DNA of 64,000 nt, from NCBI GenBank assembly GCA_030949385.1, contig JAUZSP010000002.1, positions 200,534 to 264,533 of the forward strand. Reading direction: 5' to 3'. This DNA comes from Gammaproteobacteria bacterium. GTDB taxonomy: Bacteria > Pseudomonadota > Gammaproteobacteria > JAUZRS01. Both the position numbers and the translations under genes were made by a program. Shown piece by piece: positions 9,052-64,000 of the stretch; positions within the stretch are counted from its first letter, which is position 1, and each line of letters opens with the position of its first letter. A model generated the notes under the pieces. The model saw nothing but the letters and a program-made list of their open reading frames with translations. It had not been told where the DNA came from and did not search any database.

Positions 9052-10128
9052 ATGAAATATCAAACCGACGATTTGCGCATTGTTGAGATTAAAAAACTGC
9101 TGAAACCCCGCGAGCTGCACGCCCAGCACCCGCTCAGTGAGGCGGCAGCCAAGACGGTGTTTGAAGCGCGCCAAGGTATTGGCGATATTTTGCATAACCG
9201 TGATGATCGTTTGCTGGTGATTGTTGGCCCCTGTTCCATTCATGACCCAAAAGCGGCGCGTGATTATGCGAGTAAATTACAGGCGGTCAGCCAAGAACTG
9301 AAAAAAGAGCTGCTGATTGTGATGCGGGTTTATTTTGAAAAACCACGCACCACCGTCGGCTGGAAAGGGCTGATTAATGACCCCGATCTGGATGGCAGTT
9401 TTGAGATCAACAAAGGTTTGGGGCTGGCGCGCCACCTGCTGTCAGACATTGCCGAAATGGGTTTGCCTGCCGGTACCGAATATCTGGATCTGATCAGCCC
9501 GCAGTACGTTGCCGATCTGGTCTCTTGGGGGGCGATTGGCGCGCGCACCACCGAAAGCCAAGCGCACCGTGAATTGGCCTCGGGTTTGTCTTGTCCGGTG
9601 GGCTTTAAAAACGGCACCGACGGTGGCTTGCAGGTGGCGGTGGATGCCATCGGTTCGGCTTCGCGGCCACATAATTTTCTCTCGGTGACCAAGGGCGGCA
9701 ATTCGGCTATTTTTGCCACCAGTGGCAACCCCGATTGCCATGTGATTCTGCGCGGCGGCAAGCAGCCCAATTACGATGCCGCCAGTGTTGATGATGCCTC
9801 CGGTTTGTTGAGCAAAGCCAGCCTGCTGCCGCGTTTGATGGTGGATTGCAGCCACGCCAACAGCCGTAAAATGCCCGAACGGCAGGGGGACGTGTGCCGC
9901 GATGTGGCGCATCAAGTGGCCAACGGCGATGAGCGTATTTTTGGTTTGATGTTGGAGAGCCATCTGGTGGCGGGACGGCAGGATGTCATTGACGTGGATG
10001 ATTTGGTTTACGGTCAGAGCATCACCGATGCCTGCATTGATTGGCAGAGCACGGTGCCGTTGCTGCATGAATTGGCCGCAGCGGTGCGTGAACGGCGCAG
10101 CTTGAAACAGACTGAGGAGGCGCTGTGA
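9052..10128 (+). CDS. aroG: Class I (AroG/F/H-type) 3-deoxy-7-phosphoheptulonate (DAHP) synthase
   Basis: [17 protein letters not shown]...[10 protein letters not shown]...[20 protein letters not shown]... Colinear with E. coli AroG over the full length. Sits between hisG and hisD. Confidence 0.9.
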
Positions 10129-49872: not shown

Positions 49873-51081
49873 ATGCGTTTGGGTGACTTAACAACACAGA
49901 TTGCCCTGCACGAAGGCGAATTGAGCGCCACGCAGCAAACATTGTTGCTGCAACAGACCGATGTCGATTTGGCTACGCTTTCTTTGGCTTCCGTTCTGTT
50001 GCTCTCTTTGGGAATGCTCTGGTCTTGGAGTGTACTGGAGTTTCCCGCTGCTGAGCGACCTTTGATAAGTCTCTTGATGGGTGGTTTTTTTCTCGGTGCG
50101 CTGTTGCGGGTGTTTGCTTTTATCAGCCTGAAAAAATCGTTTTACCGCACTCATCAGGCACACTGGCGAAGGCTCTTTTTTAGCGGTGTGGTGTTGACGG
50201 CGGCAACTTGGGGGCTGTTTGTTGGTGTGCTGATTGTGCAGTTTGGTTTTGGTTGGCAATCTTGGGTTTATGTGATGGCGAGCGCTGGAGTGGGTGTGGG
50301 CGGTGCGCTGAATTTTTGTATGTGGAAAAAACTGGCGGTTTTTCATGTGTTGCTGGTGTTTACTCCGCTGCTGCTGGTTTATCTCTGGTTGGGTGGTGAT
50401 CCAGGTCACAGCGCCTTGTTGGCCGGTGGCATCTATCTGTTGCTGCTGTTTGTCCATATTGCCTATTGGAACCGCCGTTATTGGGAGTCGATGATTAATG
50501 TGCAGATGCTGAAAAACATTGGCAAAGCGCTGGAAGAGTCCAATGTTCGCCTTTACACCTCGGCCAATACCGACTCCCTGACCGGTTTGGCCAATCGTAT
50601 GCGTTTGGATGAGGTCTTTGCTCATTTGCATAATGTGTATGAACGTTATCAAACTTCGTATGCGGTGGTGATGGTGGATCTGGATCATTTTAAGCAGGTG
50701 AATGATCGTTACGGTCATCATGTCGGCGATGAGGTGCTCTGTTTTGCTGCACAGCAGTTTGAGCAAGGGTTGCGAAAAAGCGATTTAGTTGGGCGCTGGG
50801 GCGGCGAAGAGTTTCTGTTGCTGCTGCCTGAAAGTGATTTGAATGGGGCATACCGTCTGGCCGAAAGCCTGCGTTTGCGTTTGAATCAAGCAGAGCACTC
50901 AGGGGTGGGGCGGATCAGCGCCTGCTTTGGGGTGACGGTTGTGGAAAGGGGAGATACGGTAGACGATTTACTCAAACGAGCGGATCGGGCGCTTTATGTG
51001 GCAAAACAGAGCGGTCGGAACCGTGTCTGTGTGGCCGATGAAAATCCAATGCCGGAAGAGCCACTGCAAAAGCGCGCTTAA
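49873..51081 (+). CDS. Membrane-anchored diguanylate cyclase (GGDEF domain)
   Basis: About 6 N-terminal TM helices. GGEEF active-site motif (RWGGEEFLLLL). RxxD-like inhibitory-site region. Confidence 0.85.
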   Translation: MRLGDLTTQIALHEGELSATQQTLLLQQTDVDLATLSLASVLLLSLGMLWSWSVLEFPAAERPLISLLMGGFFLGALLRVFAFISLKKSFYRTHQAHWRRLFFSGVVLTAATWGLFVGVLIVQFGFGWQSWVYVMASAGVGVGGALNFCMWKKLAVFHVLLVFTPLLLVYLWLGGDPGHSALLAGGIYLLLLFVHIAYWNRRYWESMINVQMLKNIGKALEESNVRLYTSANTDSLTGLANRMRLDEVFAHLHNVYERYQTSYAVVMVDLDHFKQVNDRYGHHVGDEVLCFAAQQFEQGLRKSDLVGRWGGEEFLLLLPESDLNGAYRLAESLRLRLNQAEHSGVGRISACFGVTVVERGDTVDDLLKRADRALYVAKQSGRNRVCVADENPMPEEPLQKRA

Positions 51082-51827
51082 AGTTGAGCAAGGCAGGGCA
51101 GTTCCAGTTTGAACTGCTCTGCTTGTTGACGGGCTCGCGCCAAACGAGCCGGAGCGCTGCGTCCCATGCAGTTGTGTTGCAGATCGCCCTCAAACGCCAG
51201 CAGCATCGCGTCAATCAGGGCTTCGCTTTCCAGTGGTTGATCAACCAATTTTTCCTGAATCGCTAAAATATCCTGAATCAAGTCACGAGCAAAACCTTCG
51301 TGATTCTGCCACAGCTCACCCACGTTGCCGCCGACGTTGAGACCGGCCAAATTGCTGAGCAAAATATAGAGATTTTTGCGTACCAGCTCAAACAGCAGTT
51401 CGGCCTCTGAACCTAAAACTACGCTGGTAATATTGAGTTTGCCCAAGGCGTTGGCCATCAGCGCAGCGTGAGGGCCGTAAACAGGCGAGGCTATGATCAC
51501 TTTGGCTTCGATGGCCGGTTTTTTCTCAAACCAGACGGAAATAACCGTTGGATTGGTGATGCCGTGCTGGATCCAATCTCTGGGCAGCAGTTCGTTTTGC
51601 AGCAGAGCAAGGCGATCTTTCCACACTTTGGGCAGCTGTTTTAAGGTGTCTTGCAGATCCGCTTCGCCAACGGCGAGCAACACCAAAACGGGCTTGATCT
51701 GTTCGGAGAGGTTCTGCATATCTTCGTGCCGTCCAACAGGGTAGATCGGATGACCGCTGCGCAAAAAACCGCGCGCAAAAACGCCGCCCATTTCACCGAT
51801 GCCGATAATCACCACGGGATCTAACAT
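51078..51827 (-). CDS. NAD(P)-binding Rossmann-fold protein (ketopantoate-reductase-like/DUF2520-like)
   Basis: N-terminal VVIIGIGEMGG dinucleotide motif. Convergent with the GGDEF gene, sharing a palindromic TTAA in which both stop codons overlap. Confidence 0.4.
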   Translation of the reverse strand: MLDPVVIIGIGEMGGVFARGFLRSGHPIYPVGRHEDMQNLSEQIKPVLVLLAVGEADLQDTLKQLPKVWKDRLALLQNELLPRDWIQHGITNPTVISVWFEKKPAIEAKVIIASPVYGPHAALMANALGKLNITSVVLGSEAELLFELVRKNLYILLSNLAGLNVGGNVGELWQNHEGFARDLIQDILAIQEKLVDQPLESEALIDAMLLAFEGDLQHNCMGRSAPARLARARQQAEQFKLELPCLAQL

Positions 51828-51947: not shown

Positions 51948-52736
51948 GTGGTGATGAAAAGCGCGTATTTGAGTAAGGCGATTGAAGCGGCTGAGGCGGC
52001 TCAAGAGGTGATTCGTCACTACTACCGTGGTGATAAACTCAATACCCAACTGAAAGAAGATCAAAGTCCGGTGACGGTGGCGGATGTGGAGACGGAGAAG
52101 GTCATCAAAGAGGTGCTGTTGGGCGCTTTTCCTGAGCACGGTACCTTTGGTGAAGAGACCGGCAAAGACAATCCCGATGCGGAGTTTACTTGGTTAATTG
52201 ATCCCATCGACGGTACGAAAAGTTTTGTTCGCCAGTATCCGCTTTTTTCTACGCAAATCGCGTTGATGCAGGGTGATGAGATCATTTTGGGGGTCTCTAA
52301 CTCGCCCATTTACGAGGAGCTGGCTTACGCTGAAAAGGGCAAGGGTGCCTTTATGAATGATGAGCCCATTCGGGTCAGCGGTGAAACGAGTCTGGCAAAG
52401 TCAATTTTGTCGATGGGTAACATTGAGACTTTGGCAAAGAATGAAACTGCTTGGAAACAGATGGCGAAGATTATCGGTGAAGTGAATCGCACCCGAGGGT
52501 ATGGGGATTATTACCATTATCATCTGCTTGCGGCGGGCAGCATTGATGTTGTGTTGGAGTCTGATGTGAATATTCTCGACATCGCTCCCGCCAGCATTAT
52601 TATTCAAGAGGCCGGTGGGGTCTTTACTGATCTTGCAGGTAAGCCGGTGGGCTTGGATACCACTTCCGTGCTGGCGGCGGCCAGCCCAGAGCTGTACAAG
52701 GCGATTAGTGATCGTTTGATTTGTTGTCGGGGTTAA
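51948..52736 (+). CDS. Inositol-monophosphatase family protein (SuhB/HisN-like)
   Basis: FGEE...WLIDPIDGTKSFV and later WDxAAG-like motifs of the IMPase fold. Confidence 0.8.
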   Translation: MVMKSAYLSKAIEAAEAAQEVIRHYYRGDKLNTQLKEDQSPVTVADVETEKVIKEVLLGAFPEHGTFGEETGKDNPDAEFTWLIDPIDGTKSFVRQYPLFSTQIALMQGDEIILGVSNSPIYEELAYAEKGKGAFMNDEPIRVSGETSLAKSILSMGNIETLAKNETAWKQMAKIIGEVNRTRGYGDYYHYHLLAAGSIDVVLESDVNILDIAPASIIIQEAGGVFTDLAGKPVGLDTTSVLAAASPELYKAISDRLICCRG

Positions 52737-52747
52737 GCTTTTCAGGT

Positions 52748-53806
52748 TTAGCAGATGCGGGGCAACTGCTCACCTACCAACATGTCCACAATGCGTTCAC
52801 CGCCAAAGCTTGTTTTGAGAATGACCCGTTCTGCAGGCGTGGCCAACACGTCTCCGATGATGGCGCTTTTTTGACCGGCGGGGTGTTGTTGCATGGTGGC
52901 CAATACCGCTTCTGCGTGTTTGGCGGGGACGATGGCAATCACTTTGCCCTCGTTGGCCAAGTAGAGCGGATCAAGGCCTAAAATTTCACACATGCCGCGT
53001 ACCTCTTGGCGAATCGGAATGGCGGTTTCATTTAGTCGGATTGCCACTTGGCTGCTGCTGGCAAATTCGTTTAGCACCGTGGCCACTCCGCCTCGGGTGG
53101 CGTCCCGCATACAGCGAATTTCAGGACAGGTCTGCAACATCGCTTCGATGAGGCCATTGAGGGGTTGGCAATCGGATTGAATGTTATTTTCCATCGCCAG
53201 TTCGCCCCGCGCATCGACAATGGCCGCGCCGTGATCACCCAGATAACCGTTGATGATGACCTTGTCGCCCACGTGTGCGTGGTGAGCAGCGAGATTGAGG
53301 TGAGGGGCAATCACGCCAACCCCTGCGGTGTTGATAAACAGCTTGTCCGCCGCGCCGCGTTGCACCACTTTGGTATCGCCGGTGACAATCGCCACTCCGG
53401 CAGCGTCCGCAGCCTGTTTCATTGATGCGACCACACGCCGTAGCGTTGCCACGGGCAGACCCTCTTCGATGATCATGCCGCAGCTCAAATAGAGCGGTTT
53501 GGCGCCGCCAACGGCCAAATCATTGACCGTGCCACAGACCGCCAGCTCACCGATGTCACCCCCAGGAAAAAACAGCGGGTCAACCACATAGGAGTCGGTG
53601 GTCATGGCCAGTTGAGAGCCGTATTGAGCGAGATCCGACAGCTCAAAACGGGCTTGATCTTCCAAGCCTGTGAGGTGCTCATTATCAAAACCACTGACAA
53701 AAACATCGTCGATCAGGTCACGCATGGCTTTGCCACCTGCGCCGTGGGCGAGGGTGATGGTGTCGGCTCTGAGTGTTCGTTTATTTCGAATTGGGGCGGG
53801 TTTCAC
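52748..53806 (-). CDS. hypE: [NiFe]-hydrogenase maturation protein HypE
   Basis: AIR-synthase-related fold. C-terminal ...GEQLPRIC (the PRIC thiocyanate-carrying cysteine motif). Confidence 0.9.
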   Translation of the reverse strand: MKPAPIRNKRTLRADTITLAHGAGGKAMRDLIDDVFVSGFDNEHLTGLEDQARFELSDLAQYGSQLAMTTDSYVVDPLFFPGGDIGELAVCGTVNDLAVGGAKPLYLSCGMIIEEGLPVATLRRVVASMKQAADAAGVAIVTGDTKVVQRGAADKLFINTAGVGVIAPHLNLAAHHAHVGDKVIINGYLGDHGAAIVDARGELAMENNIQSDCQPLNGLIEAMLQTCPEIRCMRDATRGGVATVLNEFASSSQVAIRLNETAIPIRQEVRGMCEILGLDPLYLANEGKVIAIVPAKHAEAVLATMQQHPAGQKSAIIGDVLATPAERVILKTSFGGERIVDMLVGEQLPRIC

Positions 53807-54963
53807 GCAGATTCTCCGTCATTAGAGGTTGATTTACGCTTGGCTAGCAGTTCTGGTAAGTTGCCGAAATTGTAGTAGGCGGCGCAGGCACCTTCAGAGG
53901 AGACCATTAATGCTCCCATTGGGGTTTCAGGGTTACACTGACTGCCAAACACTTTGCATTGCCAAGGGCGAATCGCTCCTTTGAGCACCTCACCGCATTG
54001 ACATGCTTTGGGATCTGCAATTTTTAGGTTGGGAATCTGAAATTTTTTCTCGGCATCAAAATCAACGTATTTCTCGCGCATCTTCACCCCAGAGTGATCA
54101 ATGGAACCGAGGCCGCGCCATTCAAAAAATTCTCGTAATTCAAACACCTCTTGAATGGCGTTGAGCGCCGGAGTATTGCCCTCTTTAGGCACCACGCGCG
54201 CGTATTGGTTTTCCACCGTGCAGCGTTTTTCCGCCAGTTGTTTGAGGGTCATCCAGATGGATTGCAAAATATCCAGAGGTTCAAATCCGGTGATCACCAA
54301 AGGGCGTTGATAGTGCTCAGCGACAAATTCAAAGGGGGTTTCTCCTACGACCATGCAGACATGGCCGGGAGCCAAAAAGGCATCGATGCGCATGTCAGGT
54401 GAGTCGAGAATGGCTTTGATGGTGGGTACGGTGGTGATGTGATTGCAAAACAGAGCAAAGTTTTTAATGCCGTCACGTTCGGCTTGTTGCACCGTCAATG
54501 CGGTGCTGGGCATGGTGGTCTCAAAGCCGAGGGCGAAAAAGATCACCTGTTTTTCAGGGTTTTTACGCGCCAAGTTGAGGGCATCCAGTGGCGAATAGAC
54601 CATGCGGATGTCGGCTCCCTCTGCTTTGGCTTGCAGCAGGCTCTTTTTGGAGCCAGGCACGCGCATGGCATCGCCAAAGGTGGTGAAGATCACATTGGGG
54701 CGTTCGGCTAAGGAGACGCAGTCATCCACTCGTCCCATGGGCAGCACGCAGACGGGGCAGCCGGGCCCATGTACCAGTTCAATCCAATCGGGCAGCATCT
54801 GTTCGATGCCGTAGCGAAAGATGGTGTGGGTGTGTCCACCGCAAAACTCCATTAACTGAAGAGGGCGATGTTTTGTGTCTGGTAGGGCGTTTTTTAGGCC
54901 GTTAATCTGTTTGATCAGTTGTTGCGCCTTGTCAGGATCGCGGAATTCGTCAACGTATTTCAT
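53803..54963 (-). CDS. hypD: [NiFe]-hydrogenase maturation protein HypD
   Basis: Conserved HypD Cys motifs (CGGHTH, GPGCPVC, FEPL..). 386 aa. Confidence 0.9.
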   Translation of the reverse strand: MKYVDEFRDPDKAQQLIKQINGLKNALPDTKHRPLQLMEFCGGHTHTIFRYGIEQMLPDWIELVHGPGCPVCVLPMGRVDDCVSLAERPNVIFTTFGDAMRVPGSKKSLLQAKAEGADIRMVYSPLDALNLARKNPEKQVIFFALGFETTMPSTALTVQQAERDGIKNFALFCNHITTVPTIKAILDSPDMRIDAFLAPGHVCMVVGETPFEFVAEHYQRPLVITGFEPLDILQSIWMTLKQLAEKRCTVENQYARVVPKEGNTPALNAIQEVFELREFFEWRGLGSIDHSGVKMREKYVDFDAEKKFQIPNLKIADPKACQCGEVLKGAIRPWQCKVFGSQCNPETPMGALMVSSEGACAAYYNFGNLPELLAKRKSTSNDGESA

Positions 54964-55646
54964 GTTTTATTTCCCAAGTTGCCACGCTGGTCGGCCAGCA
55001 GGGTGTGGGTCAGATCCCAGAGGATGTGATAACAGGTGAGGTGAATTTCTTGGACTCGATGAATGGAGTCACTTTCCACCACTAAGCAGTGATCCAGCAG
55101 GCCCGAGCGGCGCATTTCGCCACCATCCCCCCCCGTAAAACCAAGGGTTACCATGCCGATCTGTTTGGCTTTTTGGTAGGCTTTCAGCAGATTTTCAGAG
55201 TTGCCGCTGGTAGAAAACCCCACCAGACCGTCACCGGCTTGGCCGTAAGCTTCCAGTTGGCGAGAGAATATCTGTGCCATACCCACGTCGTTGCCCACCG
55301 CAGTCATCATGGCGTTATCGGCGGAGAGGTTGTGAGCGGGCAGTGCCGGTCGTCCTGCGGTGACTGGATGTTGAAACTCCACCGCAAAGTGAGCCGCATC
55401 ACAACTGGAGCCGCCATTGCCCATGCTGTAGAGGCGGTGCTGTTGTTGATAGAGCTTGGCCAAGCTGGTGGCAGCGGCCAGCAGCGCCGCGCCATTTTTG
55501 GCAAAAAAGCGTTTTTTCTCGGCACGACTGTGTTCCGCTTTTTGCTGGATGGAGTCCAGCAGCGCGGCGTTTTGTTGCACGGGTTCTTTTTTCTGACCGT
55601 GCAGAAAAGGGTAGAGGGCGTGCAACGATTCTGTGTTGTCGCTCAT
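54960..55646 (-). CDS. SIS-domain protein, paralog of phosphoheptose isomerase GmhA/DiaA, embedded in the hyp operon
   Basis: GNGGSSCDAAHFAVEF and GNDVGMAQIFSRQLEA...GFSTSGNSENL...TGGDGGEM blocks are colinear with E. coli GmhA. ATGA overlaps with hypC upstream and hypD downstream. Confidence 0.8.
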   Translation of the reverse strand: MSDNTESLHALYPFLHGQKKEPVQQNAALLDSIQQKAEHSRAEKKRFFAKNGAALLAAATSLAKLYQQQHRLYSMGNGGSSCDAAHFAVEFQHPVTAGRPALPAHNLSADNAMMTAVGNDVGMAQIFSRQLEAYGQAGDGLVGFSTSGNSENLLKAYQKAKQIGMVTLGFTGGDGGEMRRSGLLDHCLVVESDSIHRVQEIHLTCYHILWDLTHTLLADQRGNLGNKT

Positions 55647-55924
55647 GAGGGTTCGCTGTTTTTCATGGCGGCCAACTCCTCTTCTACTTCACCCAGCTCG
55701 GTGAGCAGCGCCAAGGTTTTTTCAGCCTCGTCAGCATCAATGCGGCTCATGGCGAACCCCACATGCACCAGCACCCAATCGCCGATGCACTGTTCTGGTG
55801 GGTGTTGTGGGTCAATAATGCAAGCAATGTTAATCGGGCGTTGAATGCCTGCCACATCAACTTTGGCCATGAGTGTGTCGTGGTCGAGAATCTCAATGAT
55901 CTGACCTGGAATGCCAAGGCACAT
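55643..55924 (-). CDS. hypC: [NiFe]-hydrogenase maturation chaperone HypC
   Basis: N-terminal MCLGIPGQI (essential Cys2). About 93 aa. Confidence 0.9.
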   Translation of the reverse strand: MCLGIPGQIIEILDHDTLMAKVDVAGIQRPINIACIIDPQHPPEQCIGDWVLVHVGFAMSRIDADEAEKTLALLTELGEVEEELAAMKNSEPS

Positions 55925-55931
55925 AAGGTGG

Positions 55932-58250
55932 TTACTCCCCTCTTTGTTGAGCTGCGCCAATCAGGGCTTGGCCAAAGGCCAAACCTCCGTCGTTGGCGGG
56001 CAGCATTTGATGGCTGAAGACCGTGAGGCCGTTCTGTTGCAAACCTTCTGTAACGGACTCCAGCAGTGTGCGGTTCTGAAACACGCCGCCGCTGAGGACA
56101 ACCTGTTTCAGTGTTTCTTTTTTCGCCAGTTTGGTGGCCATTTTGACTACGCTGTTCGCCAGCCCTTGATGAAAGCGGTAGGCCACCACGCCGACGGGAA
56201 CGCCTTGCTGAAGCTCTTTGAGCAGAGGCTGCCAGAGAGGGGTGGGATCCAATTGCCACAGCGCTTGATCTGTTTGGATAGCAAAAGGGTAGGCGTGGTT
56301 CCTTGGTTTTTCATCAGAGGTGATGGCGGCTTCCAATGCGCTGGCTGCTTGGCCTTCGTAACTGCATTGGGTTGGAGCCAGTCCCAGTGCGGCGGCCACG
56401 GCATCAAACAGGCGACCCATAGAGCTGGCGTTGGGGCTGTTGAGCTGCTGTTCGATCATGCGTTGAAGAGTGGCCAGTGGTTTTTTGTTCAGCTCTTGTA
56501 AGGCGCTTAGGTCGGCAAATTGTGTGTTTATTTCTGCCCAGCCGACGGCGTGCAGTTGCGCAAAAAGATTGCGCCACGGCTCTCGCATCGCCTGCGCGCC
56601 GCCCAGCAAGGGCATGGTTTTTAGGTGCGCCAGCCGTGTTGCCTGTCGGTAGTTGGCGCGTAGAAATTCCCCGCCCCAAAGCTGTCCATCAGCAGCGTAA
56701 CCCAGACCATCAAAGACAATCCCGAGCAGCGGCGGATGTTGGCGCGGCAAGTGATGTTCGCCCATGCAGGCGGCGATGTGGGCGTGGTGGTGCTGTACTT
56801 CGATCAGCGGCAGTTGCTGCTGTTCTGCCCAGTCACGACCCAATTTACTGCTGAGGTATTCGGGGTGTTGGTCAATGATCAGTTGGCTGGGTTGGTGGGC
56901 GAAGAGCTGTTGATAGAGTTGCAGGTGGTGTTGATAGTCGTCGTAGTGGTGCAGGGACTCTAGATCGCCAATGTGCTGTGAAAGGGTCGCGCTGCCACTC
57001 TGCAACAGGCAAAAAGTGTTTTTTAACTCGCCACCAAAGGCCAGCAGAGGGGGGCTGTGTTCAAAACCGGCGGGCAGTTTTAACTGCTCTGGGGCGTAAC
57101 CGCGCCCGCGCCGCAGCAGACGCACTTTGCCCGCCATAAAACGACCAACCGAATCGTCGATGCGGTTTTCTATATGGCGATTGTGGAGTAAAAATCCCTC
57201 TGCAAGGGGGGCGAGCTGCATTAATGCGGATTCGTTATCAATGCATTGAGGTTCACCGCTGCGGTTGGCTGAGGTGAGCACAATGGGCTGCGTCAGTTTC
57301 GCCATGAGCAGATGGTGCAGTGGTGAGTGGGGCAGCATAACGCCCCACAGGCGCTGCTGCGGTGCGAGGTTGTCGGGCAGGGCGTTGAGCTGTCGAGGAC
57401 GGAGAAGCAGAATCGGTGCGGCACTGCTCTGTAGGCTCTGTCGCTCTGCGGCGTTTAGGTGGCAGTACTGTTCGACTTGTTGGGTATTTTTAGCCATCAT
57501 CGCCAAGGGTTTGTCGGGGCGACCTTTGCGCTGGCGCAGGCGTTCGATGCTCTGCTTATTGTGAGCATCACAGGCGAGGTGAAAGCCGCCAATGCCTTTG
57601 ATGGCAATGATGTTGCCTGCGCGCAGTTCCGCTGCCGTGCGCAGCAGAGCGTGATGTTGCTCGGCTTGCGGTTCGCCGCTGCTGTTGAGGTAGCTCAGTT
57701 GGGGGCCGCAGTCGGGGCAGGCGATGGGTTGAGCGTGAAAACGGCGGTCGGCGGGGGTATCGTACTCCGCTTGGCAGCGTTGGCAGAGGGGGAAGCAGGC
57801 CATGCTGGTCTGTTGTCGATCATAAGGAATGGCTTTTATGATGGAGAAGCGTGGGCCGCAGTGGGTGCAGTTTAAGAAAGGATATTGAAACCGCGCTTCT
57901 TGAGGGTTGTTTAACTCTTGCAGACAGGCTTCACAGGTGGCGGCGTCGGCCACCACACCCGTTTGAATGGTGTGTTGTTGGCTTGGCAAAATGACAAAGC
58001 CACGGTCAATCTCGGTGTGCAGTGGACGGCTCTGTAGCTGGTCGATGCGCGCTAAGGGCGGGCACTGTTCTGTGAGTTGTTGCTGAAAAAGATCGAGGCG
58101 TTTGCGCTCGCCTTCAAGCTGGATTAAGACCCCTTGGCCGTCGTTGCAGACGCTGCCGTTGAGCTGTAGCGCGGTGGCCAAGCGCCAAACCGTGGGGCGA
58201 AAGCCCACCCCTTGTACCCGACCTGAGACCCGTATTTCGATGCTGATCAT
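55932..58250 (-). CDS. hypF: Carbamoyltransferase HypF
   Basis: N-terminal acylphosphatase domain (IRVSGRVQGVGFRP), two CxxC...CxxC zinc-finger pairs, YrdC-like and Kae1-like carbamoyltransferase domains. Confidence 0.9.
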   Translation of the reverse strand: MISIEIRVSGRVQGVGFRPTVWRLATALQLNGSVCNDGQGVLIQLEGERKRLDLFQQQLTEQCPPLARIDQLQSRPLHTEIDRGFVILPSQQHTIQTGVVADAATCEACLQELNNPQEARFQYPFLNCTHCGPRFSIIKAIPYDRQQTSMACFPLCQRCQAEYDTPADRRFHAQPIACPDCGPQLSYLNSSGEPQAEQHHALLRTAAELRAGNIIAIKGIGGFHLACDAHNKQSIERLRQRKGRPDKPLAMMAKNTQQVEQYCHLNAAERQSLQSSAAPILLLRPRQLNALPDNLAPQQRLWGVMLPHSPLHHLLMAKLTQPIVLTSANRSGEPQCIDNESALMQLAPLAEGFLLHNRHIENRIDDSVGRFMAGKVRLLRRGRGYAPEQLKLPAGFEHSPPLLAFGGELKNTFCLLQSGSATLSQHIGDLESLHHYDDYQHHLQLYQQLFAHQPSQLIIDQHPEYLSSKLGRDWAEQQQLPLIEVQHHHAHIAACMGEHHLPRQHPPLLGIVFDGLGYAADGQLWGGEFLRANYRQATRLAHLKTMPLLGGAQAMREPWRNLFAQLHAVGWAEINTQFADLSALQELNKKPLATLQRMIEQQLNSPNASSMGRLFDAVAAALGLAPTQCSYEGQAASALEAAITSDEKPRNHAYPFAIQTDQALWQLDPTPLWQPLLKELQQGVPVGVVAYRFHQGLANSVVKMATKLAKKETLKQVVLSGGVFQNRTLLESVTEGLQQNGLTVFSHQMLPANDGGLAFGQALIGAAQQRGE

Positions 58251-58251
58251 A

Positions 58252-59706
58252 TCAGTGAACCGTGCAGACCATGCAGGGATCAAAAGAGCGCACCACATGT
58301 TGCACCGCTACGGAGGTGCGATTGTCATCACTCAGTGGGGTGCCAACCAGGGCTTGTTCCAGTGCGCCTGGTTGTTCTTTTTCATCTCGGGGAGAGAAGT
58401 TCCAAGTGGTGGGGGCGATGATCTGATAGTTGATAATGTGACCGTGTTTGACTCGAATCCAATGGCCAAGACTGCCCCGAGCGGCTTCCACAAGGCCGTA
58501 GCCTTCTCCTTCGTCAGGCATCTTCGCTTGTTGAATAAAGGCTTCGTCAATGCGGATGTTTTTTGCCCAGCGTTCCATTTCTGGCAGCACCCGCGCCAAT
58601 TCCAGTAGGCGTGCCACCACGCGGTTTTGCACATTGCCACCGCTTTCTTTCACCAAGCCGTTGATCATCGGCTGGCGATCGAGTAGCTGACGAGCGAGGG
58701 CACCGACTTCCATGACGTGACCGTCGTAACGGGGAGCTTTGCACCAACTGTAGGCGTTGGCGGCATCGGCATCGGGTTCGGTGCTGCCTTGATAGGGGTG
58801 TTTTGGGCTGCGTTGGGCGTGCATCCAGCTGTGTTTTATATCTTCGCTGATGGCTTTGCTGTCAAAAGGCTGTGGTTTGCTGTGCCAAACACCGGCTTGA
58901 AACAGGTTGGTTTGTGGGGCTGTTTCATAGGCACCGTAGCTGAGAAAACGGTCGTTGGCGCGTCCCAGTTGCTCAAGGTCTAAGCGTTTGCAGAGCATTA
59001 AAAATTGGCCGAAGTCGCTCTGTGGGTGTTGCTCTGCCCATGCCCAAAGCGCGTCGCTGTTGTGCAATTCGGCGACCTGTTCCAGTGGTGCGCCAAACAG
59101 GGTGTTTTGCAAAAATTGGCGAAAACTGCCCAGCAGAGTGATTAGCTTAATGCGTTCACGAGCGTCGATGGCGCAGGTGGTGCCGCCCGGTTGCAGTGCC
59201 AGTGAGTGTGGCCAGCGTCCGGCCAACAGCCCTGTGAGCTGTAAAAATTGGGAGCGTGCGGGCAGCGCGTCTCGTGAGGCGCTGCCGCGCTGGGCGGCAA
59301 AGCGGCGGTGAATGGTTTCGAACCACGGCTCTTTTTGGTACACCTCACGGGCAAAATCGGGCATAAAAAAGAGATAAAAGTGGGAGAGGTGATCGGCCAT
59401 ATTTTCGCAGGCGAGAATCAAATTGGTGGCCAGTCGCCCGTTGTCGGTGTAACCAACGCCTTGCAGGTCGGCCAGCGCGCGTGAGGCAGCTACGGATTGG
59501 GAGACGGAGCAGATGCCGCAGATGCGTGGGGTGTAGACCAGTGCATCCTGTGGGTTTTTTCCCACGAGCATCTGTTCAAACCCTCGGTAGAGGGGGGAGT
59601 TGACCCAGGCACGGCTGACTCGTCCATCGTGCTCTTCAATTTGTACTTCGAGGTCGCCTTCAACGCGGTTAAAAGGGCCAAAGATGCGGCGGCTGGGCTG
59701 TTTCAT
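58252..59706 (-). CDS. hupV: H2-sensing regulatory [NiFe]-hydrogenase large subunit (HoxC/HupV type)
   Basis: N-terminal RICGICSVSQ (RxCGxC) and C-terminal DPCMVCTVH that ends the protein with no C-terminal extension. About 484 aa. Coupled to a signal-less small subunit and a kinase/regulator pair. Confidence 0.8.
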   Translation of the reverse strand: MKQPSRRIFGPFNRVEGDLEVQIEEHDGRVSRAWVNSPLYRGFEQMLVGKNPQDALVYTPRICGICSVSQSVAASRALADLQGVGYTDNGRLATNLILACENMADHLSHFYLFFMPDFAREVYQKEPWFETIHRRFAAQRGSASRDALPARSQFLQLTGLLAGRWPHSLALQPGGTTCAIDARERIKLITLLGSFRQFLQNTLFGAPLEQVAELHNSDALWAWAEQHPQSDFGQFLMLCKRLDLEQLGRANDRFLSYGAYETAPQTNLFQAGVWHSKPQPFDSKAISEDIKHSWMHAQRSPKHPYQGSTEPDADAANAYSWCKAPRYDGHVMEVGALARQLLDRQPMINGLVKESGGNVQNRVVARLLELARVLPEMERWAKNIRIDEAFIQQAKMPDEGEGYGLVEAARGSLGHWIRVKHGHIINYQIIAPTTWNFSPRDEKEQPGALEQALVGTPLSDDNRTSVAVQHVVRSFDPCMVCTVH

Positions 59707-60713
59707 TGGCTGGGTTCTTTTTTCAAAATGCGTGGCGGAGCAACGATGTGATCGGCCACCGCGTTCTCTTTTAGTCGAGCGGGAGTGGCGGCTTTGGAGA
59801 GTGAGGACAACGCCACAAACCACGCTTTGGGCATGTCGATGGGCAGCCCGATAGGAATACCGGCTATTTTTGGGGTTTGATGGAAGCTGTGGCCAGGTTC
59901 TTCGAACTCCGGCGCGGTGCAGTTGATGCAGGCAAAACCGCCTTTGATGCAGGAGCCTTCGCCGTTCCAAGGGCGACGGTTGCAGTCGGCGTGAGCTTGA
60001 GTGCCGAGGCAGCCTAAATTTTCCATCATGCAGCCTTGATCTGAGGGCTGTTCTGCACTGGCTTTAAATTCGTAAAACTCGTTGCGGTTGCAGCCGTGAT
60101 GCACCAAGTGATTGGTGTAACTGCGAGGGCGGTTCAGCTCGTCTAAGTGACGTTGATCCAGCTCGCCCATGGCCAGTTGGATCAACGTATCTGTGACCCA
60201 GCCCGGATGGGTGGGGCAACCAGCTACATTGATGACGGGCAGTCCAGCTGGGCTGAGCCACGTTTCACCGAGCAGGCCGCCCGGTTCGATGCCGTCGTAT
60301 TGCAGGCCGCAGGCATCGGTGGGGTTACCGCCGCCGCTGGTGATGCCGCCAAAGGCCGCACAACTGCCGATGGCCAAGGTGTAGTGGGCTTTTTCCACCA
60401 GCTCTTGCAGCCAGTGCATCATGGGACGACCGCTGCCCGCGAGCATGTGAAAACGGCCGCTGCCATTGGGGCCGCGCATCACCGAGCCTTCCAAGCAGAG
60501 GGCGTCCAGTGGCTGCTGATCGTTGAGGATGGCGCGCAGCAGGTCGAGAAAATCTTCACAACTGGCTTCGCTCAGAGAGGGGTGCCAGAGCAGCTCGATG
60601 TTGGCCAGTTCGAGGGTGCTGTAGAGATCGGGGTGTTCGGCGTTAAGCAGCGACATGCTACAGCCACCGCAGCCGCCGGACTGCAACCAGAGCAGGCGAA
60701 AGGGGCGGCTCAT
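59703..60713 (-). CDS. hupU: H2-sensing regulatory [NiFe]-hydrogenase small subunit (HoxB/HupU type), no Tat signal
   Basis: Begins MSRPFRLLWLQSGGCGGCSMS, so the proximal FeS cluster motif follows directly with no RRxFxK Tat leader. Further Cys clusters GSCAAFGG, GCPTHP, CxxxxC. Confidence 0.8.
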   Translation of the reverse strand: MSRPFRLLWLQSGGCGGCSMSLLNAEHPDLYSTLELANIELLWHPSLSEASCEDFLDLLRAILNDQQPLDALCLEGSVMRGPNGSGRFHMLAGSGRPMMHWLQELVEKAHYTLAIGSCAAFGGITSGGGNPTDACGLQYDGIEPGGLLGETWLSPAGLPVINVAGCPTHPGWVTDTLIQLAMGELDQRHLDELNRPRSYTNHLVHHGCNRNEFYEFKASAEQPSDQGCMMENLGCLGTQAHADCNRRPWNGEGSCIKGGFACINCTAPEFEEPGHSFHQTPKIAGIPIGLPIDMPKAWFVALSSLSKAATPARLKENAVADHIVAPPRILKKEPSQ

Positions 60714-62086
60714 GGAGCGACCTGCAGAGGCAGGGTGAGACGAAACAGCGCGCCTCCGTTGGGGTGGTTTTCGGCTTGCAGTTGGCCTTGGCACTGTTCT
60801 GTGGCGAGGTTGTAGCTGATGTAGAGACCTAAACCGGTGCCTTGCCCGACCTCTTTGGTGGTGAAAAAGGGGTCGAAGATGCGCAGCAAGTGCGTTTCAG
60901 ATATGCCGTCGCCGTGATCGTGAATTTCAATGACGGCGTGCTCTGCGTGCTGCGTGAGCTGTATGTCGATACGGGGAGTATCGGATTGCTGTACCGCATC
61001 GGTGGCGTTTTGCAGCAGATTGATTAGGACTTGATGTAAATAACCTTTATAGCCGTAGATTTCTACAGTTTCATCGGCATCAATGTTCAGTTGTGGGCTT
61101 TTACGTTGGGCTTTTATGACCCAATCCGCAGTGGTACGAATGACGGCGATGAGATTGAAATACTGGGCTTGTTGTTGATTGGGAGTGGAAAAACGGCGCA
61201 GTTCTTCGACGATCTCTCGTACCCGTTCAGCGCCTTCCAGCGAGCCGTCAATGAGGGAGCCGATGTCGCGCAACAGCGGGTCGATGCGCAGTCGCTCTCG
61301 CAGCTCTTGATGTTGTTGGCAGGTGTTGTTGGCATGAATGGCGGCCAGATATTCGCTGAGGCGCTGTTCGTAACGCCGCAAGGCGTGCATGTTGCCGAAG
61401 ACAAAGCTGATGGGGTTGTTGAGTTCGTGGGCGACCCCTGAAACCAACTGCCCTAAAGAGGCCATTTTTTCTGATTGTACCAGTTGATGCTGGGTGGTGC
61501 GCAGTTGTTTGTGGGTGTTTTTTAGTTCTTGATAGGCGTGCCGTAATTCACCTAATGGGCGACCGGTGATGACCAGACCGGAGAGACGACCTTTCTGTTC
61601 AAAGCGCGGTGTGCAGTTGATCGCAATGGGCACGCCGTGTTGATGTTGGGTGCGCAGTTCGACTTCGCAGTCGGTGACGGTGTGTTCGCGGATGTGCTCG
61701 GCAAAATCTTCCACCTGTTCGGCGTAGTCGGGCATAAACAGGCTGGCCAGTGGTTGACCTTTGAGCTCTTTGGCGCTTTGGCCGATGAGCGATTCGAGTG
61801 AGTGGTTGACCTGTTGTATTTTACCGCGAATGTCGGCCACGATGAGCACGTCACTCATGGAGGAGATGACGCTGCTGATAAAGCGTTGGGCGTTTTCCAG
61901 TGAGGTGTTTTTCTGCTCCAACTCGACTTGGTGATTTACCAGGTCGGCGTAGATCTGATCCATGCGTTGGATCACTTCGATCCATGCGCTTTCGTCGAGG
62001 CTGATGGCGGGGTTGGGGGTTACCTCTGCCTGTGCCATGAGTCCTTTCATATGGTTTTCTGCCTTGTTGTTGAGAACGATTCTCAA
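60710..62086 (-). CDS. hupT: PAS-domain sensor histidine kinase (HoxJ/HupT type)
   Basis: PAS region, H-box VSGVAHELNNPISFV, N/G boxes (LLQNATDA, DHGDGI, GTGLGLYIS). ATGA overlap with hupU. Confidence 0.8.
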   Translation of the reverse strand: MRIVLNNKAENHMKGLMAQAEVTPNPAISLDESAWIEVIQRMDQIYADLVNHQVELEQKNTSLENAQRFISSVISSMSDVLIVADIRGKIQQVNHSLESLIGQSAKELKGQPLASLFMPDYAEQVEDFAEHIREHTVTDCEVELRTQHQHGVPIAINCTPRFEQKGRLSGLVITGRPLGELRHAYQELKNTHKQLRTTQHQLVQSEKMASLGQLVSGVAHELNNPISFVFGNMHALRRYEQRLSEYLAAIHANNTCQQHQELRERLRIDPLLRDIGSLIDGSLEGAERVREIVEELRRFSTPNQQQAQYFNLIAVIRTTADWVIKAQRKSPQLNIDADETVEIYGYKGYLHQVLINLLQNATDAVQQSDTPRIDIQLTQHAEHAVIEIHDHGDGISETHLLRIFDPFFTTKEVGQGTGLGLYISYNLATEQCQGQLQAENHPNGGALFRLTLPLQVAP

Positions 62087-63573
62087 GGATGTTGGCCGTT
62101 GTTTTTGTTTTTGATTTTGTCGATGCCTTCGATCTGTTCGAGTCCGTAGCGTTCAAGTTTGTTGCGCAGACCGACGCGGGAGAGGCCGAGCTCTTCGGCG
62201 GTGTGGGTTTTGTTCCAATGGTGACGAATCAAAGACTCTTTGACGATGCGTGCTTCTAAGGCTTCCATGCGCTGTTTGAGGCTGCCTTCAACCTGTTGTA
62301 GAACGGAAAGGTCTTTTTCTTGTTCGTTGTTGCCGCCGTGCAGAATTTGGGTCGAAATCAGGTCGGCATCCAAGCGGTTCTCTGGGGCTAAGATCAACAT
62401 GCGTTTCAGCTCGTTTTGCAGCTCGCGTACGTTGCCAGGCCAGTGGTAGGTGGTAAGGCAGTCGATGGCCTCTTTGCTGATGCCGCTGATGGGTTTGCCC
62501 AGCTGCGCTTGCAGCTCTTCAAGAATGGAGTGAACCAAGATGGGGATGTCTTCTTTGCGTGCGCGTAGCGACGGAATGGGAATGATAAAGGTAGCCAGTC
62601 GGTAATAGAGGTCTTCACGAAAACGACCGGCTTGAACTTCGGCTTCTAGGTCACGGTTGGTGGCGGCAATGACACGTACATCGACGGTTCGGCGGCGATT
62701 GCTGCCGATAGGACGGATCTCACCCTCTTGCAGTACTCGCAGCAGTTTGACCTGAAAAGCGGGGGAGATTTCACCGATTTCATCGAGAAAAAGAGTGCCG
62801 CCGTCGGCCAGTTCAAACAGCCCTACACGGTCTTCGTAAGCGCCGGTAAAGGCGCCCCGTTTGTAGCCGAACAGCTCACTTTCCAGTAGTTCGTCGTTGA
62901 GTGCGCCGCAGTTTTCCGCCACAAAGGCGCGTTCTTGGCGCAGGCTGTTGTAGTGTAAGGAGCGAGCGCAAAGTTCTTTGCCAGTGCCTGATTCACCACT
63001 GAGAAGCACGTTGACATCAAAGGGGGCTACTCGGCGTACTAGGCGGCAGATTTCGTTCATGCAGCTGGTGTCGCTGCGAATAATGCCTTGATCACCCTTG
63101 AATTTCTGTTGCAATTGTTGGCGTTTGGCGGCGATGTCATCGGCTAGGATTTTGGGGTGCAATTTGAGTTCGCTGGAGAGCACTGAGTTTTGTTGTTGTA
63201 GGTAATACAGCTCGACCGCGTTACGAATTTTCAACAGTAGTTTTTCTGGATGCCAAGGTTTGTTGATGTACTGATATATGGCCGCTTGGTTAATGGCTTC
63301 AATCAGGTCGTTTGAGTCGGTGTAACCGGAGATGATAATGCGGATCACATCGGGCCACTGCTTACGTACTTTACTAAGGCATTCTAACCCCGACATGCCT
63401 GGCATACGTTGGTCGCATAAAATCACCTGCACCCATTCTCGCTCCAGCAAGGCGTGAGCTTCACTGGCGTTGAGGGCGGTCAGTACTTCGAACTCCTCTT
63501 CCAGAGTACGCCGCAGAGTCTCTAGAGAGCGAAGCTCATCATCAACCACCAAAATGGTGGGCAGAGTGCTCAT
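62083..63573 (-). CDS. hupR: Sigma54-dependent (NtrC-family) response regulator (HoxA/HupR type)
   Basis: Receiver domain (ILVVDDE...DQRMPGMSG), AAA+ sigma54-interaction domain ([14 protein letters not shown]), C-terminal HTH. ATGA overlaps on both sides. Confidence 0.8.
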
Positions 63574-64000
63574 AAGGCGTTCTTGGCCTCGGCTGACGTG
63601 ATGTCGTGTTGCAGTGGATGACCGATGAGACGCATGGCACGGTTGGCGCGTAACCAGTCGTACCATTGCGACATGCCTTCACCGCTGCGCGCAGAAAGTT
63701 GCAGTACCTGTAGGCTGGGATTGACCCGTCGTGCGTATTCGATGCACTTTTCCATGTCAAAATCGAGGTAGGGCAGCAGGTCGATTTTATTGATCAGCAT
63801 CAGGTCGGCGGCGTGGAACATGTCGGGGTATTTGATCGGTTTGTCTTCGCCTTCGGTGACGGAGAGAATGGCGACTTTATGCGCTTCTCCTAGATCAAAG
63901 GCCGCTGGACAGACCAAATTTCCGACGTTTTCGATAAACAGCAGTGCGCCTGCCTCGGGGGCGAGGCTCTGTAGTGCGTGGCCAACTTGATGGGCGTCCA
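63570..64000 (-). CDS. hypB: Hydrogenase nickel-incorporation GTPase HypB (C-terminal part; N-terminus beyond the window)
   Basis: [22 protein letters not shown] and C-terminal LSARSGEGM blocks of HypB/UreG-type GTPases. Stop TGA overlaps the hupR ATG. Confidence 0.85.

Follow-up and report, generated by a model that had tools for sequence, protein, structure and literature searches.

A putative H2-sensing module, HupUV-HupT-HupR, within the hyp maturation cluster of an uncultured gammaproteobacterium

Introduction

In described hydrogen-sensing systems, such as HoxBC/HoxJ/HoxA of Cupriavidus necator and HupUV/HupT/HupR of Rhodobacter capsulatus, a sensor hydrogenase controls a histidine kinase and its response regulator. 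In the absence of H2 the regulator is phosphorylated by the kinase and thereby inactivated; when H2 is present the sensor prevents this step, and the unphosphorylated regulator switches on sigma54-dependent hydrogenase promoters (PMC10073562, PMC5133592). Here we describe a stretch of 64,000 nucleotides (nt), hereafter the window, from an uncultured gammaproteobacterium (assembly GCA_030949385.1, contig JAUZSP010000002.1, positions 200,534 to 264,533). Positions 52748-64000 very probably hold the promoter-distal part of a hup/hyp uptake-hydrogenase cluster, with a standard H2-sensing module, hupR-hupT-hupU-hupV, placed between the maturation genes hypB and hypF.

All four signalling proteins have orthologues on pHG1 of C. 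necator H16 (Ralstonia eutropha), at identities of 53% for HupV/HoxC, 65% for HupU/HoxB, 53% for HupR/HoxA and 41% for HupT/HoxJ. Common to both loci are the DPCMVCTVH end of the large subunit, the absence of a twin-arginine translocation (Tat) leader, the small-subunit tail, a D55-type receiver and the GAFTGA motif. The hox sensor module of pHG1 directly follows hyp genes, as the sensor adjoins hyp genes in the window. The gene order differs: pHG1 has hypB-hypF-hypC-hypD-hypE-hypX-hoxA-hoxB-hoxC-hoxJ, where the kinase gene comes last and the hyp set includes hypX but not SIS, whereas the window has hypB-hupR-hupT-hupU-hupV-hypF-hypC-SIS-hypD-hypE, and its kinase carries Gly in the G2 box where H16 HoxJ has Ser.

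From the Vignais and Colbeau literature we take R. capsulatus hupR to lie between hypB and hypC, and hupTUV to be followed by hypF; both adjacencies are present in the window. In R. capsulatus these two pieces are separated by structural hup genes, and HupR is reported to act with sigma70 polymerase, whereas in the window all four sensor genes are contiguous and HupR keeps GAFTGA. The R. capsulatus HupUV/HupT/HupR system has the same components and signalling logic (PMC5133592). Two further relatives concern the hyp genes. The group 1h set of C. necator and pHCG3 of Afipia carboxidovorans OM5 carry a hypF-hypC-SIS-hypD-hypE(-hypA)-hypB module; sensor genes are absent from the pHG1 group 1h set and divergent on pHCG3, whereas in the window they stand between hypB and hypF.

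The same order as that of the window is found in Thiosocius teredinicola (CP019936.1), as HyaE-HupH-rubredoxin-HybE-HupK-HypA-HypB-HupR-HupT-HupU-HupV-HypC-SIS-HypD-HypE; the proteins are 65-79% identical to those of the window, and most overlaps are of 4 nt. Thiosocius lacks hypF at the position where the window has it. In thiotrophic symbionts of mussels (Bathymodiolus thermophilus EPR9N), lucinids (Loripes) and snails (Chrysomallon), hupUV, hupT and hupR likewise lie within a hup/hyp cluster, with hydrogenases of groups 1d and 2b (PMC9789115, 2022).

The hydrogen-sensing module

Genes were located by open reading frame (ORF) reading and translation of positions 52700-64000, and families were assigned with Pfam and NCBIfam profiles. 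Ten co-directional minus-strand genes occupy 52748-64000. They are listed here from hypB to hypE, and their content and order are those that the initial annotation had given.

63570-64000 and beyond, minus strand: 3' part (142 codons) of hypB, for the nickel-inserting GTPase; cut by the window end, its TGA stop overlapping the hupR ATG (TIGR00073, 164.7 bits, cut-off 121.2, profile positions 95-214 of 217)
62083-63573, minus strand: hupR/hoxA, NtrC-type response regulator (Pfam Response_reg, Sigma54_activat, AAA_lid_14, HTH_8)
60710-62086 (or start at 62050), minus strand: hupT/hoxJ, soluble PAS histidine kinase (Pfam PAS, HisKA, HATPase_c)
59703-60713, minus strand: hupU/hoxB, predicted regulatory hydrogenase small subunit, 336 amino acids (aa) (Pfam Oxidored_q6, NiFe_hyd_SSU_C)
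58252-59706, minus strand: hupV/hoxC, predicted regulatory hydrogenase large subunit (group 2b), 484 aa (Pfam NiFeSe_Hases)
55932-58250, minus strand: hypF, carbamoyltransferase supplying the CN ligand precursor (TIGR00143, 842.9 bits, cut-off 466.1)
55643-55924, minus strand: hypC, Fe(CN)2CO chaperone (Pfam HupF_HypC, 94 bits; TIGR00074, 84.3 bits, cut-off 48)
54960-55646, minus strand: SIS, GmhA-like SIS-domain protein, 228 aa (Pfam SIS_2; NCBIfam gmhA TIGR00441, 154.3 bits, below the cut-off of 209.45)
53803-54963, minus strand: hypD, Fe-S scaffold on which the Fe(CN)2CO unit is assembled (TIGR00075, 510.6 bits, cut-off 192.8; Pfam HypD, 524 bits)
52748-53806, minus strand: hypE, carbamoyl dehydratase, GTG start (TIGR02124, 479.2 bits, cut-off 251.6, match from residue 17)

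HypB, HypF, HypC, HypD and HypE all exceed the curated NCBIfam cut-offs, and HupR, HupT, HupU and HupV have the domain architectures expected of them. From its ATG at 58250, HypF covers positions 1-739 of the 741 of TIGR00143 and has all five Pfam domains; HypC begins MCLGIPGQ, and a Shine-Dalgarno sequence, GAGGGG, stands upstream of its gene. The H2-sensor cascade that had been placed inside the hyp operon is indeed there, with hupR, hupT, hupU and hupV apparently intact between hypB and hypF. Longer starts for hupV (TTG 59970), hypF (ATG 58298), hypC (TTG 55960) and hupR (ATG 63666) were rejected, because the shorter starts are where profile matches and orthologues begin, and the added stretches overlap the upstream genes. 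We judged plus-strand ORFs within the cluster, such as 55089-55844 and 60147-60815, to be antisense artefacts of GC-rich coding sequence.

The assignment of HupUV as a putative group 2b regulatory hydrogenase, made by similarity and motifs, is well supported. HupV aligns over its full length with pHG1 HoxC (BLASTP, 516 bits, 53% identity over 483 aa). In a tblastn search of 72,556 plasmids its best matches, at 48-55% identity, are HoxC/HupV genes of Azospirillum, Bradyrhizobium (54%, beside a gene for 'HupU protein'), Acidovorax, Cupriavidus necator H16 and Afipia carboxidovorans; the next class reaches at most 35%. On pHG1 the matched gene belongs to hoxA-hoxB-hoxC-hoxJ: its neighbours are annotated as a 'regulatory [NiFe] hydrogenase small subunit', a sigma54 regulator and a kinase. 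Of the solved structures, Huc of Mycobacterium smegmatis, a group 2a enzyme, is the closest by sequence (260 bits), with group 1 enzymes at 230 bits or below. The nearest characterised enzyme is HoxC and not one of group 2a or group 1, in agreement with the class first proposed.

The match to Huc, taken with the absence of Tat leaders from group 2a small subunits too, would fit a different reading, in which HupUV is a cytoplasmic energy-conserving uptake hydrogenase of group 2a type that stands beside a two-component system by chance. We regard this as extremely improbable. The evidence against it can be summarised as (i) HoxC, a characterised sensor, gives 516 bits and 53% identity over the full length, against only 260 bits for Huc; (ii) HupV has no cleavable C-terminal extension; (iii) HupU carries the tail specific to regulatory hydrogenases; (iv) no maturation endopeptidase gene accompanies hupUV; (v) hupT and hupR, the orthologues of the HoxJ and HoxA genes, are adjacent.

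The motifs of both subunits point to a group 2b sensor as well. In HupV the Ni-Fe ligand motifs RICGIC (residues 61-66) and DPCMVC (residues 476-481) are invariant in the alignment, and the sensor-type motifs RICGICSVSQ, EGD (with the equivalent of HoxC D15) and HFYLFF are kept, with Gln replacing the usual His after the first CxxC. We take the Ile of CGIC and the Phe of HFYLFF to be HoxC Ile62 and Phe110 of the narrow gas-channel gate, and the Asp15 and Gln67 substitutions to be typical of sensors; the roles of these HoxC residues reportedly go back to Buhrke (2005) and Gebler (2007). Asp15 of HoxC is mentioned in PMC10073562. The protein ends ...FDPCMVCTVH-stop, as does C. necator HoxC, which has no protease-cleaved C-terminal extension (PMC10073562, citing Kleihues 2000). 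The claim that the large subunit ends at DPCMVCTVH with nothing to cleave is borne out.

The small subunit, 65% identical to the pHG1 'regulatory [NiFe] hydrogenase small subunit' (HoxB), starts MSRPFRLLWLQSGGCGGCSMS, with 14 residues before the first Cys, and runs directly into GGCGGCSMS; its N-terminus, MSRPFRLLWLQSGGCGGC, begins at the same Met as in orthologues. At the other end, the regulatory-hydrogenase tail GLPxDMPKAWFVALxSLSKxATP...ADH is conserved with HoxB. A Tat-bearing upstream start was considered and rejected: the sole in-frame candidate, GTG 60794, adds 27 hydrophilic residues (VPRPTASRKPPQRRRAVSSHPASAGRS) that have no hydrophobic h-region and lie inside the HATPase_c coding sequence of hupT. 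The small subunit has no usable upstream start and, as originally stated, no Tat leader.

The kinase and regulator genes lie directly upstream of hupUV, and their products are 41-47% (HupT) and 53-54% (HupR) identical to the pHG1 and Acidovorax proteins. The H-box of HupT, GVAHELNNPISF, is invariant with HoxJ, and AHELNNP is conserved; inspection of the sequence shows no evident hydrophobic segment. The G2 box, GTGLGL (GLGLY), has its Gly intact, whereas strain H16 HoxJ has Ser (GLSLS), a replacement that is inactivating (PMC10073562). At 53% identity to pHG1 HoxA, HupR keeps the receiver, the sigma54 AAA+ domain and the Fis helix-turn-helix, and both the receiver Asp54 (ILCDQRMPG, equivalent to HoxA D55) and the GAFTGA motif are invariant. 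The H2-sensing cascade of group 2b HupUV, HupT and HupR is complete and, judged from these motifs, apparently intact.

Conserved gene order gives the module its context. A scan of one genome per species, annotated by tblastn, yielded 80 loci with a HupV relative, the closest HupV being 68% identical. Three layouts recur. The first, with the window's hupRTUV order and hypC-SIS-hypD, is found in about 16 of the 80, among them metagenome-assembled genomes (MAGs) of Sedimenticolaceae, Granulosicoccaceae, Methylomonas, Methylophaga and Methylothermaceae and isolates of Cocleimonas and Exilibacterium; it also occurs in 11 metagenome loci (one locus, L087, plus 10 of the 80 in a further metagenome set). 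The second is hypA-hypB-hypC-hypD-hypE-(hypX)-hupR-hupT-hupU-hupV-hypF, with no SIS gene, and the third is that of pHG1. The window gene order is common to many sulfur- and methane-oxidising gammaproteobacteria; this is an ordinary switch that has been described before.

In every locus of the first layout that reaches far enough, the region upstream of hypB is the tail of a group 1d hupSLCDFGHIJK operon, and in syntenic loci it reads hupG(HyaE)-hupH-rubredoxin-HybE-hupK-hypA. The structural hupSL genes would therefore be expected beyond position 64000, where an uptake hydrogenase is likely to be encoded. The reading as a promoter-distal hup/hyp segment is carried by the gene identities, the intact motifs, the orthology to a characterised sensor and the conserved synteny; we infer the signalling logic, a single transcript and hupSL genes upstream.

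Some observations weigh against this reading. The window ends within hypB, so that the promoter, hypA and the structural hupSL genes lie outside it. A sigma54 -24/-12 motif is absent from the coding strand within the window: the search gave four one-mismatch matches, all of them on the opposite (plus) strand, against a mean of 8.3 after shuffling. This absence would be expected if the promoter lies upstream, and it is uninformative. For hupT there are two candidate starts: TTG 62086, which overlaps the hupR stop and has no Shine-Dalgarno sequence, and ATG 62050, which has a distant AAGG. Since the N-termini of HupT orthologues ahead of DESAWIEVIQRMD differ in length and sequence, the start cannot be fixed by comparison.

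The remaining point comes from the closest relatives, whose eroded copies of the cluster indicate that it is evolutionarily labile. Three contigs (GCA_964615985.1; JGI 3300023481 and 3300023445) have 77-79% nucleotide identity to the window and the same downstream neighbours. In all three, homology starts inside hupT, at window position 61314, so that the N-terminal 245 residues of HupT are missing and the contigs hold no hupR or hypB; each contig ends less than 700 nt from the hupT breakpoint. Deletions of about 340 nt in hypE (with loss of the AIRS N-domain) and about 177 nt in hypF are also present. Such losses in hupR, hypB, hupT, hypE and hypF would suit a view of the window cluster as a decaying, non-functional remnant like these copies. 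We consider this very unlikely, as every gene in the window is a full-length ORF matched by its profile end to end, except hypB, which the window end cuts, and the encoded proteins retain their metal ligands, H-box, G2 box, receiver Asp and GAFTGA.

The downstream neighbours retained in these three contigs begin with the plus-strand inositol-monophosphatase gene (51948-52736). It converges on hypE, the final gene of the unit, its stop lying 11 nt on. A minus-strand gene at 51078-51827 (249 aa, no Pfam match) and a plus-strand GGDEF diguanylate cyclase gene at 49873-51081 follow; these two converge, and their ends overlap by 4 nt.

The initial annotation had placed ATGA stop/start overlaps at seven junctions. 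Read from the sequence, five are as stated: hypB/hupR, hupT/hupU, hupU/hupV, hypC/SIS and SIS/hypD. The other two differ. The hypD/hypE junction is GTGA, GTG being the sole start upstream of the conserved HypE N-terminus, and hupR/hupT is CCTTGA, with either a TTG start overlapping the stop or an ATG 33 nt downstream of it. A 1-nt spacer (TGAtATG) separates hupV from hypF, and a 7-nt spacer hypF from hypC. Overlaps of 4 nt of some kind are found at 7 of the 9 junctions; in the remaining 52.7 kb of the window a mechanical scan gave two genuine ones, at 10126 and 29025. This high density is real, yet normal for hyp/hox operons: on pHG1, hypC/hypD, hypD/hypE and hoxA/hoxB likewise overlap by 4 nt.

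Across 19 orthologous clusters the spacing of SIS/hypD and of hypD/hypE is -4 in 17 each, and at the remaining junctions it mostly drifts between about -32 and +60 nt; the few larger values reflect deletions or mis-set starts, and the choice of start is biased towards -4. The overlaps had been read as implying stoichiometric co-translation of sensor, kinase, regulator and maturases. They do not, because an overlap leaves re-initiation efficiency unfixed, and most spacings drift among the orthologous clusters. Nor would regulator, kinase, sensor and catalytic maturases need to be produced 1:1. The spacing pattern speaks for compaction and probable translational coupling and not for fixed 1:1 dosing, and the cluster is probably a single compact transcription unit.

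Sigma70 promoter-like and terminator-like sites within the cluster show no excess over shuffled expectation. The segment from hypF to hupT (56000-62000) has a GC content of 0.56-0.57, against about 0.51-0.53 elsewhere in the window, and GC at third codon positions averages 0.62 for the cluster genes and 0.58 (standard deviation 0.05) for 17 other genes. This shift hints mildly at foreign origin and is not significant by itself. The other 52 kb hold housekeeping genes (rpoD, pnp, a UvrD-type helicase, a Pit transporter, anthranilate synthase, a GGDEF protein), and none of the 20 ORFs tested there is a further hydrogenase gene.

Model and implications

We propose, by orthology to C. necator HoxBC/HoxJ/HoxA and R. 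capsulatus HupUV/HupT/HupR, that signalling at this locus would work as follows. HupUV would be a cytoplasmic hydrogenase, subject neither to Tat export nor to C-terminal processing, in complex with the soluble PAS kinase HupT. Without H2, HupT would autophosphorylate and then phosphorylate HupR at Asp54, leaving HupR inactive. With H2 present, HupUV would halt phosphotransfer, and unphosphorylated HupR would activate the sigma54-dependent uptake-hydrogenase operon. HypB, HypF, HypC, HypD and HypE would assemble the NiFe(CN)2CO cofactor and place it in the sensor as well as in the energy-conserving enzyme.

This uncultured gammaproteobacterium can probably sense H2 and induce an uptake hydrogenase; this extends a well-understood circuit to a further lineage. 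The locus is useful ecologically for inferring hydrogenotrophy in sulfur-oxidising or symbiont-like bacteria, and the eroded copies in the closest relatives suggest strain-level gain and loss of the trait. Wider interest is confined to the uncharacterised GmhA-like protein, whose gene is strictly linked to hypC and hypD.

The GmhA-like SIS gene

The product of the SIS gene is a GmhA paralogue that keeps a complete catalytic and Zn site. It matches Burkholderia pseudomallei GmhA at E = 5e-35, and its AlphaFold (AF2) model (predicted local distance difference test score 87.7) superposes on the GmhA structures 2XBL and 1TK9 with template modelling scores of 0.91-0.93 and root-mean-square deviations of 1.4-1.8 A. 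GmhA residues D61, H64, E68, Q175 and H183 (B. pseudomallei numbering) correspond to SIS D83, H86, E90, Q199 and H207 and are invariant in 45 homologues. Of these GmhA residues, D61, H64, E68 and Q175 have been probed in mutants deposited in the Protein Data Bank, where the entry titles for D61A, H64Q and Q175E confirm the importance of the mutated positions. The protein scores below the equivalog cut-off of TIGR00441 and below the cut-offs of the other gmhA models, and it has an extra invariant N-terminal motif, LYPFL.

In 101 loci (19 from the genome scan and 82 further), homologues with 58-79% identity are flanked by hypC and hypD as far as the contigs extend; hypC is visible in 93 and hypD in 86, the others being short contigs that end first. 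About 70 of the 101 have no hupRTUV. Orthologues in the hyp set of the C. necator pHG1 group 1h hydrogenase (H16_RS31885, 62.6%) and on Afipia pHCG3 (OCA5_RS17420, 59%) have the same position and the same overlap with hypD, and the contexts span hydrogenase groups 1d/2b as well as apparent 1h and 2a contexts. Frequent occurrence of gmhA-like genes, both in operons of groups 1h and 2a and in neighbourhood statistics, is documented (PMC11879354; PMC12727194, table; PMC5445863, MSMEG_2706; PMC3231954). We found no functional study of a hyp-linked gmhA-like SIS gene in the literature searched.

The conserved GmhA fold with all its catalytic and Zn residues, and the annotation of homologues as D-sedoheptulose-7-phosphate isomerase in source records, would be expected of an ordinary GmhA of lipopolysaccharide heptose synthesis whose gene hitch-hiked into the operon and has no role with the hydrogenase. 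This we think unlikely. The protein falls under the NCBIfam gmhA cut-off (154 against 209 bits) and carries the extra LYPFL motif; the hypC/hypD placement recurs in 101 loci, including pHG1 and pHCG3, across hydrogenase groups; and the 4-nt overlap with hypD is kept in 17 of 19 loci.

A pattern of mutual exclusion with hypX, which was seen in none of the SIS loci, suggests another possibility. Among loci that hold both hypD and hypE, 71 have SIS and no hypX, 25 have hypX and no SIS, 9 have neither and none has both, so that hypX is present in 25 of the 34 loci lacking SIS and in 0 of the 71 with it. These counts are uncorrected for phylogeny and see only a 10-kb horizon, beyond which hypX may lie elsewhere in the genomes; pHG1 carries both genes, in different hyp sets. 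The exclusion is confounded by lineage, as two hyp lineages may simply differ, and it serves as a lead only. As a separate observation, the MAG 'Proteobacteria bacterium' DX2.bin53 (locus L028) has hupR-T-U-V-hypF-hypC-hypD-hypE in the window's order, with no SIS and with hypX after hypE; its HypC, HypD and HypE belong to the other lineage (42-48% identical), which fits an either-SIS-or-HypX pattern.

The SIS protein might be a maturation factor of the [NiFe] cofactor dedicated to one lineage of hyp operons; it might supply or process a sugar-phosphate-derived precursor and thereby cover the step of HypX in other aerobic H2 oxidisers, the supply of the CO ligand. The exclusion with hypX, the complete metal and catalytic site, the family-specific N-terminal motif and the near-universal overlap with hypD allow such a role, which we rate as quite improbable. 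If a GmhA-like SIS protein did help in cofactor assembly, this would be relevant to where the CO ligand comes from in [NiFe] hydrogenases that lack HypX.

One MAG carries a variant of the gene. At L088:5676-6869, SIS is fused to a C-terminal DUF559/MTES_1575 (endonuclease-like) domain, in a cluster that reads hypF-hypC-SIS-x-hypD-hypE-hypA-hypB-NicO, has no sensor genes and lies beside NifU/Rieske and NHL genes.

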